Below are positions 6,141-64,000 of a stretch of DNA of 64,000 bases, in pieces (the stretch's first letter is position 1; each line of letters begins with the position of its first letter). The notes under the pieces are model-generated. The model saw nothing but the letters and a program-made list of their open reading frames with translations, was not told the DNA's origin and searched no databases. Where the stretch lies: the IMG/VR virus record IMGVR_UViG_3300032738_000111, positions 14,241 to 78,240 of that record, one strand, 5' to 3'. The DNA comes from a virus. A program made the position numbers and the translations under genes.

Positions 6141-6215
6141 TGGTGAGGGCAATTGGATTTGAACCAATGACCGGCCGCTTATGAGGCGGCTGCTCTTCCG
6201 CTAAGCTATGCCCTC
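6141..6215 (-). tRNA. tRNA with CAU anticodon (Ile2-like, or elongator Met)
   Basis: Full cloverleaf GAGGGCA-UAGCUUAGCGGAAGAGC-A-GCCGC-CUCAUAA-GCGGC-CGGUC-AUUGG-UUCAAAU-CCAAU-UGCCCUC-ACCA. Position 1 pairs with 72, so it is not an initiator tRNA. Confidence 0.93.
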
Positions 6216-56368: not shown

Positions 56369-56844
56369 ATTCGGTCAAGGCCTCCGCTGATTTCGTCCTT
56401 GAAGAAGTCCTTGATGCCCGCCCTGGCTCGGTCAAAGGCAGGTTGCAGCCAAGGGCGGCGAGGCATCTTTATGGCAGGTATTCGCACGCTCTTGCGGAAG
56501 ATAGCAAGCCCAGTCGGGCCGAACCAACGTAACGCCTTTGCGTGGCGAGCTTTCACCGTGTGCGCCGGAATAGTTGCGCCGAACTCGTGAACCGGCCCGT
56601 AGACTACGTTAGTGCCGACCTGCGCCTCCAACTTTGCTTTGTCTATATCAACGCGGATGCTGGATCGCAGGGTATCGTCCTGCACATGGAGTGGCCGACC
56701 AGCAGTCAAGTTCTGTTTCGCATTCCTCTCTACCAAATGCGCAGCCTTAGTCAGCGCCTTCTCCGTACTCCGCCGCGTCTCCTTCGTGGCGTTGTCTAGC
56801 GACCGCAGCAGTTTCTCAACACCTCTGATTTGGAATGTGAGCAT
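56365..56844 (-). CDS. HK97-gp10-like/virion morphogenesis neck protein
   Basis: LRSSI, VGTNVVYGPVHEFG, MPRRPWLQPAF. Confidence 0.85.
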   Translation of the reverse strand: MLTFQIRGVEKLLRSLDNATKETRRSTEKALTKAAHLVERNAKQNLTAGRPLHVQDDTLRSSIRVDIDKAKLEAQVGTNVVYGPVHEFGATIPAHTVKARHAKALRWFGPTGLAIFRKSVRIPAIKMPRRPWLQPAFDRARAGIKDFFKDEISGGLDRI

Positions 56845-56847
56845 GGG

Positions 56848-57240
56848 CTATCTATCCCTGCGTTCTTGGGTAAGCGCGTCGGGCAGCGGCGGCGGGTCAT
56901 CCATAACCGATATATCGCAGATAACGTGGTCGGGCCTACCTGCCGCGCTCCGCTTGTTCGATTCCCGCACGCTCATTACTAACCAGCACTTGTCATCTGA
57001 ATGCCGCCGAAGCAACGCCGCCACCTTCAAGTCTGCCGACGGTTCTGCTCGCAGGATATGTGTCGCCAAGGGGCTGTAGTCACCAGCAGCGTTTGCGGTC
57101 AAGGCCTGCGTATTCGTCATTGAGACAATACGCCCGCGCAGGCTCGTGGTATCTGAGGGCAACCAGTCTGGCGGGTCAGTGTCGCCAAACTCAGGGGTAT
57201 GATAGACTGTCAGGCGGTCAGGGAACGGTATCAGTGCCAT
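56848..57240 (-). CDS. Head closure (stopper) protein
   Basis: Size and position; THILR motif. Confidence 0.55.
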   Translation of the reverse strand: MALIPFPDRLTVYHTPEFGDTDPPDWLPSDTTSLRGRIVSMTNTQALTANAAGDYSPLATHILRAEPSADLKVAALLRRHSDDKCWLVMSVRESNKRSAAGRPDHVICDISVMDDPPPLPDALTQERRDR

Positions 57241-57382
57241 AGGTGGGTGCTTCCCTTACTTAGAACTACAAACGCCCCAGAGAGCTTCCTGGAGCGGAGA
57301 AATGCTATTGAGGTGGTGCGCCAAGAGGCGGGAGGAGGGGGTGGTGCTTGTTGGCAGGGCAGCCAAACCCCTCGGCGCACCG

Positions 57383-57967
57383 TTACACAATCAACTTGTC
57401 CAGTCGCCTGTATCTATCCAGCACCATCTTGACTTGACTGGCAAACCCACTGCTCTCATCATAGCTGATAGATACCCCGTCCGCCGCCTGTGCAGCTATG
57501 CCTATCCGTTCGCGATGGTCAATCTCGAAGAGTATCTGGTCAATCAGCGCGGTCTTGAGGCCAGCAGGGAATGTCGCCTCATCATAGCCGCCGCTGTACA
57601 CTATCTTGACTGAGGCGTCGCCATTGTAGAACACCGACTCCCCATTGAATAGTTGCACCTTGCCAGCGTCCTTGTACTCGGTCTCGTCTATCACATCATC
57701 ATCGGCGTCAATAGTCACCGCCGCTACCTGCTCGTTGTGGGTCAGCGTAGTTATCGAAACCCACGGAGGGTTGTCCACGTAGAAGAAGCTGGGGTTGCCT
57801 ACAATGTCATGGTGCTCAGTGCGCGTGGCAAGCTCAAACATACGCATACAGTAGGCTTCAGCCTTGGCGGTGACCGAATCAATCCTGCGCAAGATACGAG
57901 CGTCAAGCTGCGCACCCGCGATACCACCTTCGTCTTTGACATCATCGAGCGTTATCAGGTCGGGCAT
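57383..57967 (-). CDS. Head-tail connector protein
   Basis: LITLDDVK, AEAYCMR.F, VKIVYSGGY, LDRYRR. Confidence 0.85.
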   Translation of the reverse strand: MPDLITLDDVKDEGGIAGAQLDARILRRIDSVTAKAEAYCMRMFELATRTEHHDIVGNPSFFYVDNPPWVSITTLTHNEQVAAVTIDADDDVIDETEYKDAGKVQLFNGESVFYNGDASVKIVYSGGYDEATFPAGLKTALIDQILFEIDHRERIGIAAQAADGVSISYDESSGFASQVKMVLDRYRRLDKLIV

Positions 57968-58236
57968 GTTCTCTCCTTCTCCGCCTGCCGTTCCTCAAAG
58001 AACCTGCGAGTCTCTTGGAGCCAATATCGAATATTCTGATAGCCGATATGGTCTGGCATAACTTGCAGGATGTTTTCAATTGCTACGATATTCTGAGTGT
58101 ATATCAGGCTTTCCCACGTTAGCATATCGCAGACAACATCCAGTATGGGTTCGCGCCAGCGCGGGCGCATATGGCGCCCGCCTGAGGCAAGGCCTTGTGC
58201 GATACCTCGTGCCTCCTGCTGTAAGTCAGGTTGCAT
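57955..58236 (-). CDS. Hypothetical protein
   Basis: GGAGG Shine-Dalgarno; overlaps the connector start. Confidence 0.5.
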   Translation of the reverse strand: MQPDLQQEARGIAQGLASGGRHMRPRWREPILDVVCDMLTWESLIYTQNIVAIENILQVMPDHIGYQNIRYWLQETRRFFEERQAEKERTCPT

Positions 58237-58272
58237 CGCCGCCCGCCTCCGTGTGCGTACTCAAACATGCGC

Positions 58273-58782
58273 CTACGCATCTAGGCCCAACAGGTATGCA
58301 GTAACGAATTCGCCGAGTTTACCGTCGAGCACCGCCTGCGCATCCACAACCTCAACACTGGTACGGTGGTCCTTGACCATTGTGTACGGATGTAATACGT
58401 ATGACCGTATCGGCGGATTGCTCTTGGGTACGTGTGGAATATCGCAGCAGTCGTCGATATCCGGCATTACACTAACTGCGGCAAAGCTCGTGTGTCGGCG
58501 CTTCGAAGCATCGAATGGCGATATCCTCACTAGGCGATGGACACCCGCCTCGCCATTGAGTTGACCATAGGCACCAAGACCACGGACTGTAGCTACAACC
58601 AGGCGAATGCCAGGACCATCACCGCGAATTGCAGAACCCACTGTGAACTCATAGCCATTGATTTCGGCAAAATGCCGATACATCCGCAGCAGTATTGCCG
58701 CCCAAGCGCACGCCTCGATGTTACCGCCCCCCGCATTCACCGACAGAACTGCTGACTTTTCATCCAGCACTAGTTTATACAT
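58273..58782 (-). CDS. Mini release factor 2 homologue (domains 2 and 4 only; SPF present, GGQ domain and domain 1 absent)
   Basis: AGGG..EA.AWA..LLRMY, AYG.L.GEAGVHRLVRISPFD..RRHTSFA, joined directly to IRSYVLHPY.MVKDHRT...VLDG.L..F. Confidence 0.9.
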   Translation of the reverse strand: MYKLVLDEKSAVLSVNAGGGNIEACAWAAILLRMYRHFAEINGYEFTVGSAIRGDGPGIRLVVATVRGLGAYGQLNGEAGVHRLVRISPFDASKRRHTSFAAVSVMPDIDDCCDIPHVPKSNPPIRSYVLHPYTMVKDHRTSVEVVDAQAVLDGKLGEFVTAYLLGLDA

Positions 58783-58786
58783 CTGC

Positions 58787-59422
58787 TCAGTCCTCGTGGA
58801 CCTCCAGCTTCTTCTCATACTCCAGCCGCCCGCGTCGCGGCCAGCAGCCAATCGCGTTCCCCTCAAACGGGTACTCGTACAATATCCAGTTAGCCCTGTC
58901 TTCCATATCGCCGTCGATGTCTTCCATCCCGCGCATTGTCAGTATGCCAGTAGCGCGCTCCCCCTCACGCGACCACTCTATCGCCCAGACAATGACCTCC
59001 GCCGCCACATCAGTGCTTACCGTTTCTGGGCAACTAATCTCGACCTCGTCCATGTTTTCGGGATAGCGGTCATGTTTGTTGAGCATCATCAGCGGGATGG
59101 GCTTGGGTGGCCTCAACACTAGCAGGTAGGTCACAGCCCAGTCCCCCGCCTCCGCAATCTCTATGCCCACTATCTGCTCGGGCTCTGTCTCAAGCAGCGC
59201 CGCCGCAGTTAGCTTGCCGAGTTGCCCGTTGCGGAGTGTTGCTGATGGACTGAGTACGATTTCGGATAGCGCCCGCCCCTCCAGAATTGCCAAGGTGACT
59301 TCGCTGCGGTAGTCGAGCCAGCGTTGCGCGATAGCATCACGAGCAACCATTTCGGCGGCCCGCCAGACTAGCTGCCAGTTGAAGTGCTTGGTCTCAGACT
59401 TCGTCTCTGCCGCTGTTGTCAT
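58787..59422 (-). CDS. Hypothetical protein
   Basis: 211-aa ORF directly upstream of the mini-RF2. Confidence 0.65.
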   Translation of the reverse strand: MTTAAETKSETKHFNWQLVWRAAEMVARDAIAQRWLDYRSEVTLAILEGRALSEIVLSPSATLRNGQLGKLTAAALLETEPEQIVGIEIAEAGDWAVTYLLVLRPPKPIPLMMLNKHDRYPENMDEVEISCPETVSTDVAAEVIVWAIEWSREGERATGILTMRGMEDIDGDMEDRANWILYEYPFEGNAIGCWPRRGRLEYEKKLEVHED

Positions 59423-59705
59423 CCCCTGTATCAGTCCATCTACCCAGCAACTGCTTTACAGTTCGCATAGTCTCAATTAGCTTTGTGTATTCATCAGTGG
59501 GTATCTGCCACAACACCCTTTCGCCCGAACAGATAGTAGCCATCATCATCACCGCCCTTGTTCCCATTCAAGTTGCTCTATGCGCCTCGTCAAGCTCCTG
59601 ATGCGGGCATCTATTAGCCGCAGGGCTGTTGACAGAGAGATTGCTGCCGTGGGGCTAAACTCTGCAAAACTATCAGCAACATCCTCCTCCGTACAACCGC
59701 CGTAG

Positions 59706-60107
59706 CTAAGTACCAGCTCCTCTGTTGACAGCACCTTCGTCTTTGCCATCATCCTCGCCCCTTTTACTATCCTGCTCGCTGCCCTGTTCGTCAGTATTCT
59801 TACCCAACAACTCCTTCACCATTTCCAAGTCATCCATAGTCAGCCGCAACACCTCTTCATCACCCAGGCAGATAGCAATATCCTGACCGGCGGGGAAGCT
59901 TATGTATGTAACGCCGAGGGGCTCATATACAGCATCCAGCCGCTGTTCCTCGGGACTGCGCTCAGGCCCTGCATTGCTTGCGGTAACAGTTAGGTCAATC
60001 TCGGAAGGACCGTACAACCCATACACGATGTCCGGCATATCGCCCTCATCCTTCTCCACCTCATGCACGATGTTCAGTACATTGCCATCATTCTTCTCCG
60101 CCATCAT
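59706..60107 (-). CDS. Acidic hypothetical protein
   Basis: Part of the coupled operon. Confidence 0.55.
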   Translation of the reverse strand: MMAEKNDGNVLNIVHEVEKDEGDMPDIVYGLYGPSEIDLTVTASNAGPERSPEEQRLDAVYEPLGVTYISFPAGQDIAICLGDEEVLRLTMDDLEMVKELLGKNTDEQGSEQDSKRGEDDGKDEGAVNRGAGT

Positions 60108-60381
60108 CCTCGCCCCCGTTGTCGCCCTTGGCTTCCTCGGCGCTTGCAATGACCTTCCGGTTCTCTGGCGCAACCCTCTTCGACGCCGTTGCGGGAGCGG
60201 CGCGCAACCGAATAGTCTGCGCCAGGACAAATGCGTCCATGTCCTCCCAAGTAGTGGGGTCGGCACGCAGTATATCAGCCTCGCCATCGCTTACTGTAAC
60301 GCAATCGCCCTCCGCGACATCCGGCGACCCTATCACACCATCCGGCAACTTTGCATCCTTCTTAGCTCGGAACCTCGGCAT
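60088..60381 (-). CDS. Hypothetical protein sharing a module with 60362-60880
   Basis: EGDCVTVSDGEADILRADPTTWEDMD; APENRKV tail. Confidence 0.6.
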   Translation of the reverse strand: MPRFRAKKDAKLPDGVIGSPDVAEGDCVTVSDGEADILRADPTTWEDMDAFVLAQTIRLRAAPATASKRVAPENRKVIASAEEAKGDNGGEDDGGEE

Positions 60382-60880
60382 CGGCTTGCTCCATTTCGAT
60401 TTGGGCCTCGTCCATCTCTTCCCAGTTGTCGGCATCGGCGCGCATTATCTCAGCCTCGCTAGCGGTGACGGTAACGTAGCCCTCCTCGTAAACGATAGTT
60501 GGGCCTTCAACGCCATGTGGTAAGTAGGCGTCACACATTGCCTTGAATGTTACCCCCACGTTACCAGTCTCCTGCTTGCGCTGAATGGCGGCCTTGGCAA
60601 ACTTGGCTACCGCCGCCTCATCATCTTGCCAGTCCGCGTTCTCGATTGAAGCCGCTAGCAAGACAAGCGCGTTATCGAATGTCGGCGCATTTGCCCGGAT
60701 CACGTCGTACCTATATTGGTATTCGCGGTTGGGCCACAACTCCTTGCGTGCTACCGCAGTGACGCCGCCGCGCAATGTCATGTTCTTCCCGTAGGTGATA
60801 CCACTCTCCCATTCAATGACCAAGGCGCATCCGTGTGATTCGAGCTCCTGTAGTAACGCGATTAGCTTAGAGTGCTCCAT
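60362..60880 (-). CDS. Hypothetical protein
   Basis: EGYVTVTASEAEIMRADADNWEEMD. Confidence 0.6.
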   Translation of the reverse strand: MEHSKLIALLQELESHGCALVIEWESGITYGKNMTLRGGVTAVARKELWPNREYQYRYDVIRANAPTFDNALVLLAASIENADWQDDEAAVAKFAKAAIQRKQETGNVGVTFKAMCDAYLPHGVEGPTIVYEEGYVTVTASEAEIMRADADNWEEMDEAQIEMEQADAEVPS

Positions 60881-62060
60881 CTTCCTCCGCCCCTTTCTCT
60901 ATCCGCGCAGCCTCCTCGTTGCTCCACGGCTTCAGGTCGAGCAACGGAACCTCAGGCTCATCGGCAGTCTCCATATCCGCAAACGCCGGCTTGCCCTCCC
61001 TGCCCTTGTGCGCCCATTCCTGTATCACATCATAGGTCGGCTTCTTCTTCCCGTCACTCGTCATCAGTCCGCAGAAGCCGCCCCAGTGTTTGGCAGCATT
61101 CAAGTCGGGGTCATGGTCAGATAGTTCGTGTACTATTACAACCTGAAACCCATGCCGCTCCATTATCTCAAGGTCGGTCTCATACCACTCCACGGCCTCT
61201 TCGCACGTAAGCTGCTGGACGCCCTCCTTGACTACGACGCTTTTTAGGTATTCCTTGAACTCCTCCGGTATATCTGGCGGTAGCGTCGGGTAGCCCCACT
61301 CAGTACAGGCAAAGGGTTGATTGGTGCCCGCCGCCTCAAGGTTCCTGCGGATTTCGGCGTATCCTCTTTCGGCCAAATCGGTAGCGCGGGCGCGGTCGCG
61401 GATGTGCATGAAGTACGGATGCCAATTGGCGACCTCGAAGCTCTCTGCCGCGCCCTCCTGCAACAGGCCGAGGATGAAGTTTATGTCCAAGTCCATCCCA
61501 TAGCCGCCATTCCAGACGCGCGCCGACGGCATGACATCATGTATCGCTTCGTGAATAGCAGTCAGGATAGCCGGATATGCCTGGTGCTTGTCAAACATGC
61601 CTCGGCTTACCCAGGCGCAACGGTACTCGCCCCAGAACTCATAGTCCTCGCATAGGTCTTTGTGCAACTCGACGAATGCCCTGGCATTGTCGGCGAGCCG
61701 ACCGTTTGCGATGGCCGAAGCAACCTCTTGATTGTGAATGATGATTTCTTGGATGCGTTCGGGGCTGTCGCCAGGTTGCTTCCCCAGCAGCTTGCCCTCC
61801 TCATTCAGCCGTACCTGCGCGTCAATAGCGATAGTGCTCAGGTACTCAACCGAACCGTGCATGTCTAGTACGCAACGCAGGCCGGCCTCGCGCGCCGCCT
61901 CAAGCCGTGGCCGCATATCATCAACACGCTGGTCCTCAATGATATTCGCCCCGATTTTAGTCCAACTGAAGCCAAGGTCCTTACAGTGCCCGGTATAATC
62001 ATCTAGTTCCCGATATGGCCCGGAGTGTTCTTTGTTGAATGCGTGTATGCCGATTTCCAT
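60867..62060 (-). CDS. Clan GH-A glycoside hydrolase-like TIM barrel (GH5/GH39-like)
   Basis: DLGFSW, YEFWGE (acid/base), ANWHPY, CTEWGY (nucleophile), FCGLM...KKPTY. Confidence 0.75.
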   Translation of the reverse strand: MEIGIHAFNKEHSGPYRELDDYTGHCKDLGFSWTKIGANIIEDQRVDDMRPRLEAAREAGLRCVLDMHGSVEYLSTIAIDAQVRLNEEGKLLGKQPGDSPERIQEIIIHNQEVASAIANGRLADNARAFVELHKDLCEDYEFWGEYRCAWVSRGMFDKHQAYPAILTAIHEAIHDVMPSARVWNGGYGMDLDINFILGLLQEGAAESFEVANWHPYFMHIRDRARATDLAERGYAEIRRNLEAAGTNQPFACTEWGYPTLPPDIPEEFKEYLKSVVVKEGVQQLTCEEAVEWYETDLEIMERHGFQVVIVHELSDHDPDLNAAKHWGGFCGLMTSDGKKKPTYDVIQEWAHKGREGKPAFADMETADEPEVPLLDLKPWSNEEAARIEKGAEEDGAL

Positions 62061-62098
62061 TGTCTCAGTGCCCCTTTGTATTGTCAAAGTGCGCGGTG

Positions 62099-62908
62099 CT
62101 AGTCTGTACTCAAGTGCGCCGTCACTAAGCGCATCGCATGGACTACGTCTATCACTACCGCAAAGTCCGCTGCGGGCGACGGGTACGAACCATAGCCGAC
62201 AGAGAGGCCGACCGCCTGCGGCACGTGTTGCGAAATTGTATGTGCGTCTGACTGCTCGCCCTCTTCCGCCCAGGAATAGGCCAGGCCCAGCTCCCGCGAG
62301 AATATCATCAGGCGGTCAACGAACCAGTCCGAGGCAGTAGCGCGGCGGTTGTACACCGATACAATGTCCTGCTTGCCGGGCCGGTCGAGACACAAGCAGT
62401 AGTCCAAGCCTGCGAAGAAGTCCGCATCAACCGCCGTAGCTCCCCCGTTCTCGTTAGCCCGTTGTGCGCTCAGTAGCACACGGAAGGGCAAGTTGGTGAC
62501 TTCAGCCAATGCCAGGATTATCGCGATGCCACACTTGTCATCTGCGCCGATGCAAAGCGTCTCGCCGCCATCATCCTGGCCTTCGATTTGTAGCAACCCT
62601 TCCTTCTCCGGGAAGGCCAGTGCCGCTGAGTTCAACCGCGCCAATACCTCTACATCGCGCATCTGCTGAGCGGTGTCCATGTGGGCGGCCAGCAGCGTTG
62701 CCTGTGCCCCCTCGTCACCGCGCGAGGCTAGTAGGTTACCATTGGCATCCTGCTCCGCCGTGAAGCCTGCGTCGGTAAGGGCAGTGCGACAGTAGAGCCG
62801 GACGCCCTTCTCCGCACCGCTCGGCGATGGTAGTAGGAATAGCTGCTTCAGGTGTTGCGTAATTGAGAGGTACTCATCTAGCCCCGACGACTGCACCCGT
62901 TCGCCCAT
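62099..62908 (-). CDS. M20/M28/M42-like zinc peptidase fold, catalytic site partly degenerate
   Basis: PSPSG.E, D.NGNL, AHMD, GADDKCG, LDR; lacks the EE motif and the C-terminal His. Confidence 0.75.
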   Translation of the reverse strand: MGERVQSSGLDEYLSITQHLKQLFLLPSPSGAEKGVRLYCRTALTDAGFTAEQDANGNLLASRGDEGAQATLLAAHMDTAQQMRDVEVLARLNSAALAFPEKEGLLQIEGQDDGGETLCIGADDKCGIAIILALAEVTNLPFRVLLSAQRANENGGATAVDADFFAGLDYCLCLDRPGKQDIVSVYNRRATASDWFVDRLMIFSRELGLAYSWAEEGEQSDAHTISQHVPQAVGLSVGYGSYPSPAADFAVVIDVVHAMRLVTAHLSTD

Positions 62909-63240
62909 GCCGGCATTGCCCCTCTTACCCCAGTATTATAGGTCTTCGGGCTCCCATGAGCGGCAGCCGAAGGTTGATTTACATAAGCCAACTGGAGCAC
63001 CGGCCCTTGCACACCGGCCCCCGCTAACCCCAAACAGCCGCCTCTCCCAGAAGCGGCAGTGCTTGCATGTGCGCTGCGCACGTTCAAGCTCAGCTGCATT
63101 TCCAGAGAACCCTATAATAGTTACCCCGCACGGATACCCAGTGTCACCGATGTCTATCGTTGCTTCCCTTGCCGAGCAGTCAACGCCATCTATCGTTACG
63201 GGAAACCTAGTGGGTATCGCCATTGCCCTCGCCCCTCTCA

Positions 63241-63507
63241 CTACGCCGGATACACCCTGCCCATACCCGTAGTATCGCGAGGGCCGTGGCGCGGCTTGAC
63301 CTCTGGTGCCGCTTCCGTATTGACGACCTCCACCTGCGGCTCGTCAATCCACACTGGCTTATATACATCGCCATCCTCGCTCAACTCTTGCCTCTGTACG
63401 AGCACCTGCACGCAACCATACAGATACTCTGCGCGGGCGGTCACCTTGCCCTCATAGCCCGTGATGCTGTCCTGTACAACCTGCCCTAGCTTTACTGTCT
63501 TTGCCAT
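63241..63507 (-). CDS. Small SH3-like phage protein
   Basis: LGQVVQDSITGYEG.VTAR.EYLYGC....VQ...WIDE. Confidence 0.65.
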   Translation of the reverse strand: MAKTVKLGQVVQDSITGYEGKVTARAEYLYGCVQVLVQRQELSEDGDVYKPVWIDEPQVEVVNTEAAPEVKPRHGPRDTTGMGRVYPA

Positions 63508-63532
63508 TGGACTGCCCCTTTCGTCTTACATT

Positions 63533-63979
63533 CTACCTCTTCGGCAGCAACTTGTCAAAGTCTATCGTCGGCTTCGTCGTCGTAGCCCCGCCCTGCGCAA
63601 TCCACTCCTTGACCGGATAGCCCTCCCAGTCAAACTCCGCGCGGTACTTGTCAAGTCGCGCCTGCGTAGCGGTTAGGTGGTTGTAGTCTTTCACGCCCTC
63701 GCCATAAGCTATCAACTGTTCGCTCGGCTCAGGATTAGCCATGTCGCAACCGGCCTTCAGGTAGTCCTTCCAGCACCACGACAAGCGCATACGCGGCTGC
63801 ACTAGCCACGTCCATAGGCCGATGCTCCACCTGACCATCTCCGGCGTGCAGGGCGCGTGGGCTAGCTGCGTGTCGTATACCCAAAACTCCTTCTTGCTTG
63901 CTTCGATGAGTCGCTTGCAACCGTGCATATCGCCGCCGATGATGATACTCACGCAGACAATATCGAGCAGCGGCACCAT
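63533..63979 (-). CDS. Hypothetical protein (start may lie further upstream)
   Basis: ORF near the window edge. Confidence 0.5.
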   Translation of the reverse strand: MVPLLDIVCVSIIIGGDMHGCKRLIEASKKEFWVYDTQLAHAPCTPEMVRWSIGLWTWLVQPRMRLSWCWKDYLKAGCDMANPEPSEQLIAYGEGVKDYNHLTATQARLDKYRAEFDWEGYPVKEWIAQGGATTTKPTIDFDKLLPKR

Positions 63980-64000
63980 GTTCTTGATGTTCGGGTAGCA

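Follow-up and report, generated by a model that had tools for sequence, protein, structure and literature searches.

A phage-encoded RF2 derivative reduced to its codon-recognition half, a candidate antagonist of translation termination

Release-factor derivatives and the phage mini-RF2

In bacterial release factor RF2 (prfB), the N-terminal helical domain 1 contacts RF3 and the L11 stalk. PrfH, an RF2 paralog paired with RtcB2, is without domain 1, retains GGQ, and is catalytic. ArfB and ICT1 are codon-independent rescue factors that consist of a GGQ domain and a basic C-terminal tail, and Pelota/Dom34, an eRF1 paralog with neither GGQ nor codon-reading motifs, works together with a GTPase and ABCE1. 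To our knowledge, every described bacterial or phage derivative of a class-I release factor (RF1, RF2, PrfH, ArfB) retains the catalytic arm, if only as a relic. Here, we describe mini-RF2, a 169-aa protein of a freshwater, siphovirus-like phage, encoded in the 64,000-nucleotide stretch of DNA that we analyzed (the window). In the literature and databases searched, we found no natural protein made of the stop-codon-reading module alone, and the literature search gave no description of a decoding-only release-factor derivative.

Mini-RF2 and bacterial RF2 have the same fold, as judged from structure prediction, and the SPF, RRHTSF, and domain-4 motifs of mini-RF2 are identical to the RF2 consensus. 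In contrast to bacterial RF2, it is encoded by a phage and has no domain 1, GGQ domain 3, helix α7, or Trp319 switch loop. Like PrfH, it is derived from RF2 and lacks domain 1, but PrfH has GGQ, and mini-RF2 does not; the NCBIfam PrfH model was not among the matches of mini-RF2, and no RtcB-like neighbor was noted. ArfB and ICT1 resemble mini-RF2 in being class-I release-factor fragments that exist as separate proteins, yet their architecture is the opposite: they are the GGQ part, whereas mini-RF2 is the decoding half without GGQ. Pelota/Dom34 offers a conceptual analogue as a release-factor–derived A-site factor that does not hydrolyze peptidyl-tRNA, although it is not homologous to bacterial RF2.

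Release factors in which GGQ is mutated to GAQ bind the stop codon and stay locked on the prehydrolysis ribosome (PMC6742477), and by analogy, this is the mode of action that we would expect of mini-RF2. These mutants, however, retain the switch loop and the complete four-domain architecture, whereas mini-RF2 has no catalytic arm, and its binding would probably be weaker and of a compact, preaccommodation-like kind. The stop-codon-recoded phages Lak, Agate, and Jade carry full-length RF1/RF2 genes (bioRxiv 10.1101/2021.08.26.457843), which like mini-RF2 are phage-borne release-factor genes thought to manipulate termination. Their factors are complete and catalytic and are accompanied by suppressor tRNAs and recoded genes; in contrast, the mini-RF2 phage uses the standard code and carries tRNA-Met only. 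Should mini-RF2 bind ribosomes, the phage would encode a codon-specific inhibitor of termination, possibly a device for takeover or regulation. It could then also serve as a tool to pause ribosomes at UGA/UAA for read-through and recoding work, and structural studies could use it to separate codon recognition from catalysis. If it is inert, it would be an example of a prfB fragment that persists for a time in a phage late operon.

Gene, domain content, and predicted fold

The mini-RF2 coding sequence (58273..58782, minus strand; protein P0001) starts with an ATG at 58782, comprises 169 codons with no internal stops, and ends with a TAG at 58273-58275. We read a GAGGA Shine-Dalgarno sequence 8 nt 5′ of the ATG (58791..58795, minus strand); it sits within the final codons of the upstream gene, which encodes a 211-aa protein, and is also present in the related contig L002. 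The TGA of this upstream gene (58787-58789) is separated from the mini-RF2 ATG by 4 nt. No promoter-like or terminator-like sites were found flanking mini-RF2 or within the insertion that holds it. With this Shine-Dalgarno sequence, the 4-nt spacing, and no promoter or terminator of its own, mini-RF2 should be cotranscribed and translationally coupled with its neighbors. A sequence-only reading of this DNA had described an intact 169-aa ORF that starts at the RF2 domain 2 boundary, carries SPF, follows a GAGGA, and has no GGQ; both the ORF reading and the family searches bear this description out.

The unusual architecture is the one point that speaks for an assembly or gene-calling artifact, such as a chimeric contig or the collapsed read-through of a full prfB. 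The virus record is complete (78,240 bp with direct terminal repeats), and the region 56800-60400 is covered by long contigs (up to 78,020 bases) in four runs from four freshwater-metagenome samples with no differences and no joints, the four runs being from one study that may include the source sample and hence not fully independent of the source record. Depth over this region is even at 15-19× in all four sample contigs, there is no population variation among them at mini-RF2, and the protein is recorded from both JGI and Logan assemblies. A chimera at the mini-RF2 junction is very unlikely, and we regard the chance of any such artifact as negligible. The identity of the four assemblies excludes the assembly error at the junction on which the sequence-only reading would have foundered.

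Among Pfam models, mini-RF2 matches only PCRF (PF03462; E 4.5e-31, residues 6-103). The NCBIfam prfB model (TIGR00020) gives 194.6 bits (E 2.4e-57) compared with 90 bits for the RF1 models; this score is well below the curated prfB cutoff of 370 bits. In phmmer searches against RF2 chains in the PDB, residues 6-116 align without gaps to Bacillus subtilis RF2 118-228, and residues 124-164 align to RF2 317-357 (42 bits); ∼88-90 RF2 residues have been swapped for a linker of 7-9 residues. The offset to Escherichia coli RF2 (element numbering taken from PMC5378476) is 117, and S88-P89-F90 (58513..58521, minus strand) correspond by alignment to the SPF tripeptide at 205-207. [quoted passage not shown] The linker PHVPKSNPP (residues 116-124; 58411..58437, minus strand), where pLDDT is low, stands in place of E. 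coli RF2 ∼233-322 in the alignment. Domain 4 follows (residues 125-169; 58276..58410, minus strand), identified by the 42-bit match and with no departures at conserved columns. Across these elements, mini-RF2 carries HRLVRISPFD, RRHTSF, and IRSYVLHPYTMVKDHRT.

The segment lost between the two domains contains, in E. coli numbering, GGQ 250-252, helix α7, and the switch loop 315-323 with Trp319. At the switch loop, mini-RF2 has SNPP where RF2 has WGSQ, and the deletion ends at I323. Domain 1 is likewise absent: Met1 falls at approximately E. coli residue 118, where it aligns with a Met at the domain 1/2 boundary that is conserved in many RF2 proteins, and there is no similarity upstream. The GGQ domain model PF00472 has no match in mini-RF2 or in the whole phage genome at E values up to 1, and tblastn with five RF2 proteins across the phage genome returned matches to domains 2 and 4 only. 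A GGQ domain supplied in trans or surviving as a relic is thus ruled out, as none is present anywhere in the 78,240-bp genome. MAFFT aligned IPHVP of the linker to the domain-3 motif ITHIPTG, and placing CCDI on the first domain-3 strand is an equally good alternative; the junction may reflect either one deletion or two. Judged by its sequence, mini-RF2 is a derivative of RF2 and not a member of the family, failing in four defining features (score, GGQ domain, domain 1, and switch loop).

The AlphaFold2 model of mini-RF2, made with 59 RF2 sequences, has a mean pLDDT of 84.8 and a pTM of 0.83, and pLDDT drops below 50 only at linker residues 116-121. With Foldseek, this model superimposes on RF2 chains, both free and ribosome bound, with a TM of ∼0.8 normalized to the query, and the ESM Atlas model of mini-RF2 has a TM of 0.92 to an RF2 cluster. 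[quoted passage not shown] PCRF-only clusters exist in the ESM Atlas as well, with scores <0.9.

A singleton insertion in the late genes

All phage genes except two lie on the minus strand. The late genes begin with portal, protease, and major head protein, which are followed by a long accessory stretch and after it, by genes for a 269-aa peptidase-like protein, a 406-aa protein, and proteins of 172, 193, and 211 aa; mini-RF2 and ORF93 come next and then the head-tail adaptor, neck, and tail genes and the tape-measure protein. Mini-RF2 is flanked upstream by the conserved 211-aa late gene of unassigned function (58787..59422, minus strand) and on the other side, beyond ORF93, by the head-tail adaptor gene (57383..57967, minus strand; phrog_442, E 9e-23). 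ORF93, an orphan 93-aa ORF (57955..58236, minus strand), overlaps the start of the adaptor gene. Measured against the gene order of relatives, mini-RF2 and ORF93 form an insertion of ∼0.82 kb (57968..58786, minus strand) between the 211-aa gene and the adaptor gene. The ∼17 kb of mostly unannotated accessory genes between the major head and head-tail adaptor genes (L007 1-11076 plus window 58787-64000; L007 1-14240 is the rest of the phage genome beside window 1-64000) make up an unusually large break in the head module and include an HNH endonuclease (420 aa), the peptidase-like 269-aa protein, and the 406-aa protein, which is conserved in relatives.

Three related contigs, L002 (= L004), L005, and L006, encode adaptor proteins that are 85-94% identical, and the ∼0.82-kb insertion is absent from all three. 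In these relatives, the homolog of the 211-aa gene directly abuts the adaptor gene or, in L005, is separated from it by a different ORF of 63 aa. Because the three relatives are without both mini-RF2 and ORF93 and because L005 carries another insert, we regard the two ORFs as an insertion in a variable slot. The 63-aa ORF of L005 (2028-2222) is Cys rich (CPHIGC...CYNC), and the slot is empty in L002 and L006. In both ORF93 and the L005 insert, the start resembles that of the adaptor gene (MPDL..., ATGCCCGAYCTG) and the last residues are ERTCPT, a pattern that suggests recombination at a repeated gene start. No true homolog of ORF93 was found among 1.84 billion representatives, and searches of Pfam, PHROG, NCBIfam, and PADLOC gave it no family matches. 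GC3 in the mini-RF2 insertion is 0.535 compared with a genome mean of 0.649 ± 0.051, and from this atypical composition, we infer that the acquisition was probably recent and of foreign origin. Scans with the tape-measure protein and a 1080-aa protein found no further related phages.

No protein with the same junction was found among 5.8 billion protein clusters, in searches that included junction-directed ones. IMG/VR, INPHARED, PLSDB, and a set of 185,579 species, each represented by one genome, also gave none, all of their matches spanning domains 2-3-4. In these databases, mini-RF2 with its junction is a singleton found in one phage only. The nearest RF2 sequences are at most ∼60% identical to it, and no donor lineage stands out. 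The sequence-only reading had named a lack of homologs with the same junction, together with neutral evolution, as grounds for refuting it; the singleton status and the three related phages that lack the gene go most of the way toward this.

The same architecture was found in one further protein, P0328 (166 aa, encoded on a 1,762-bp contig), which starts at the domain-2 boundary and has lost all of domain 3 through a junction that differs from that of mini-RF2. The last common ancestor of the two is the root of a 120-sequence tree, in which both have the longest terminal branches, and this placement indicates that P0328 is phylogenetically independent. Four other singletons from metagenomes have partial deletions of domain 3: P0298 and P0316 are without the helix-α5 tip and the GGQ core, and P0322 and P0342 retain GGQ, with the rest of domain 3 missing.

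None of the database matches that we considered proved to be another carrier: each was a full-length RF2, a contaminant prfB, or an unrelated deletion form occurring as a singleton. The RF2 match in L003 (OQ572403.1, "Pseudomonas phage Y1," unverified) is an ordinary chromosomal prfB followed by lysS, which suggests that this stretch of the record is bacterial DNA. The same may apply to several small "Listeria/Staphylococcus phage" records in which the RF2 match is full length.

Uneven divergence and possible functions

Among 166 RF2 sequences, mini-RF2 has the longest terminal branch (0.69; median 0.07) and the greatest root-to-tip distance. At RF2 columns that are ≥90% conserved, it departs at 7 of 18 in residues 6-63 (E. 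coli 123-180; the N-part) and at none of 46 in residues 64-107 and 125-165 (the C-part, with the SPF loop, β-sheet, and domain 4; p=5e-5, or ∼7e-4 when corrected for any cut point, as the split was set after seeing the data). The seven departures are A136G, G138N, T139I, D143A, D/E167S, A174P, and T180V; genuine RF2 sequences have a mean of 0.16 departures in the N-part. An independent reference of 76 genomes with an 80% threshold gave 13/25 departures in the N-part vs. 3/45 in the C-part (p=3e-5), and all three C-part changes are conservative.

The tip of helix α5, GAGGTE..D in RF2, has become GGGNIE..A in mini-RF2. G20 and E23 (E. coli G137 and E140) are kept; the substitutions A136G, G138N, T139I, and D143A affect positions with 99-100% conservation among 165 RF2 sequences. 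The β2-β3 region has also diverged at residues 167, 170, 174, 178, and 180. Through the loss of D143 and D/E167 and the gain of an Arg at position 170, the net charge of mini-RF2 is +2 compared with −1.9 ± 2.0 for RF2. The SPF loop and the residues that read the third base are perfectly conserved.

Uniform neutral decay does not predict departures at 7/18 columns in one part and 0/46 in the other, and the unevenness of the pattern argues against it. RF2 residue 167 is buried against domain 3 in closed RF2 (PMC7530605), and residues 165-168 adjoin the GGQ loop in compact RF2 (PMC5378476); because the changed part holds the first and adjoins the second, some of the pattern is what loss of domain 3 should release. 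A clean C-part would also be expected from a very recent truncation if the donor RF2 was already unusual. The earlier suggestion that the gene was selected rather than decayed is, then, borne out in part. The cuts at domain boundaries and the uneven departures (p=5e-5) favor it indirectly, and the singleton status and the three relatives without the gene count against it.

The helix-α5 tip reads the first stop-codon base via backbone contacts (PMC3418547), and the two tip residues that make these contacts are retained in mini-RF2. SPF is the RF2-specific reader of the second base (PMC5378476). Given the changes in the tip, codon reading by mini-RF2 may be altered. In Salmonella RF2, neutralizing or reversing the charge at E167 raises ribosome occupancy and relaxes codon reading (PMC7530605). 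The switch loop stabilizes the release factor on the decoding center, where Trp319 stacks on A1492. With four near-invariant tip residues replaced and the switch loop missing, the stop-codon affinity and specificity of mini-RF2 are uncertain. The claim that mini-RF2 keeps stop-codon recognition, made from the sequence, was overstated: mini-RF2 has an altered U1-reading tip, a substitution at the conserved acidic residue 167, and no Trp319 switch loop.

We tentatively propose that mini-RF2 is a noncatalytic A-site binder that antagonizes RF2, a reading that we consider plausible but somewhat short of probable. A bacterial prfB would have been captured and stripped of domain 1, the GGQ domain, and the switch loop. 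The product, cotranscribed and translationally coupled with late structural genes, would dock in the 30S A site at stop codons in the manner of compact, preaccommodated RF2; there, it could not hydrolyze peptidyl-tRNA, and its competition with RF2, and with RF1 on UAA, would delay or reprogram termination. Ribosome binding, codon specificity, and a benefit to the phage are what we infer here; given the changes in the U1-reading tip and at the acidic residue 167, the specificity may be relaxed. Because the switch loop that stabilizes the open state is absent, mini-RF2 would resemble the short-lived compact state, and with binding of this kind, any inhibition would hinge on its concentration and its charge changes. 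We count in favor of RF2 antagonism the architecture and predicted fold, the absence of GGQ in trans, the reality of the DNA, the coupling, the uneven constraint, the charge, the precedent of the GAQ mutants, and P0328; against it, we count the singleton status, the relatives without the insertion, GC3, the longest branch, the altered tip, the missing switch loop, the post hoc choice of the N-part/C-part split, and the clean C-part that a very recent truncation would leave.

The main rival to antagonism of RF2 is that mini-RF2 is a young, nonfunctional remnant, a prfB fragment that arrived by illegitimate recombination at a variable slot in the late operon, suffered an in-frame internal deletion, and has not yet been purged, with an ORF that has simply not had time to be interrupted. 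We find this rather unlikely, although much in the data is consistent with it: the gene is a singleton with atypical codon usage that three relatives lack, its branch is the longest in the RF2 tree, and it has lost residues with 99-100% conservation in RF2, including part of the reading head. P0298, P0316, P0322, P0342, and P0328, sporadic singletons as they are, indicate that such deletion products arise by accident, and the slot is prone to recombination, as the different insert in L005 attests. However, 7/18 vs. 0/46 departures are unlike uniform decay, and the N-part changes, impossible in a working RF2, imply that time has elapsed since the shift in constraint, still with no stop, frameshift, or change in the 46 C-part columns. 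Both cuts lie at domain boundaries, and the fold is confidently predicted. Phage genomes, moreover, rarely keep dead DNA within a coupled late operon.

We also weighed a functional mini-RF2 with a target other than the stop codon and judged it improbable. Such a protein would act as a decoy for one that binds the RF2 surface (for example, a rescue factor of the ArfA/BrfA type, or else a host factor or a toxin directed against RF2), or it would occupy the A site independently of the codon. ArfA binds the domain-2 β-sheet of RF2 (213-217, V198, F217) with no need of SPF (PMC5378476), and the RRHTSF strand that it contacts is fully conserved in mini-RF2. From the altered U1-reading tip, strict codon reading may be free of selection. 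However, ArfA also requires Trp319 of the switch loop (PMC5378476), which is deleted in mini-RF2, and the SPF loop and third-base residues are perfectly kept, which would not be required of a pure protein decoy. Mini-RF2 has no PADLOC match. ArfA and BrfA have narrow taxonomic ranges, which also counts against a decoy for such factors.

Stop-codon usage differs between the gene classes of the phage. The late and structural genes end in TAG (25), TAA (19), and TGA (13), the last accounting for 13/57, whereas early and middle genes (window ∼5200-38400) end in TGA (37), TAG (10), and TAA (7), with TGA at 37/54 (Fisher p=1.4e-6; window 1-64000 plus L007 1-14240). The difference persists when stops that overlap the next start codon are set aside. 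RF2 antagonism could be extended to a natural, phage-encoded inhibitor that is made late, occupies UGA (and UAA) without peptide release, and stalls or reprograms termination in the host and in the early and middle genes of the phage while largely sparing late genes. The early and middle genes would be exposed, as 69% of them end in TGA; among the late genes, 77% have a TAG or TAA stop, which RF1 can serve. Although this would be a new viral route to takeover of translation, at the termination step, we give the extended scheme little credence. Adaptation of stop codons to mini-RF2 was rejected, as 11 orthologous late genes in relatives without the insertion showed no directional shift; the stop-codon split is therefore not tied to mini-RF2 and is not evidence for the mechanism. 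Nearly half of the late stops are TAG, which is unusual. The only tRNA gene of the phage is a tRNA-Met (CAT; window 6141-6215, minus strand), and the phage has no suppressor tRNA. Under table 11, the late ORFs, up to 1080 aa long, are uninterrupted, and the phage reads as standard code.
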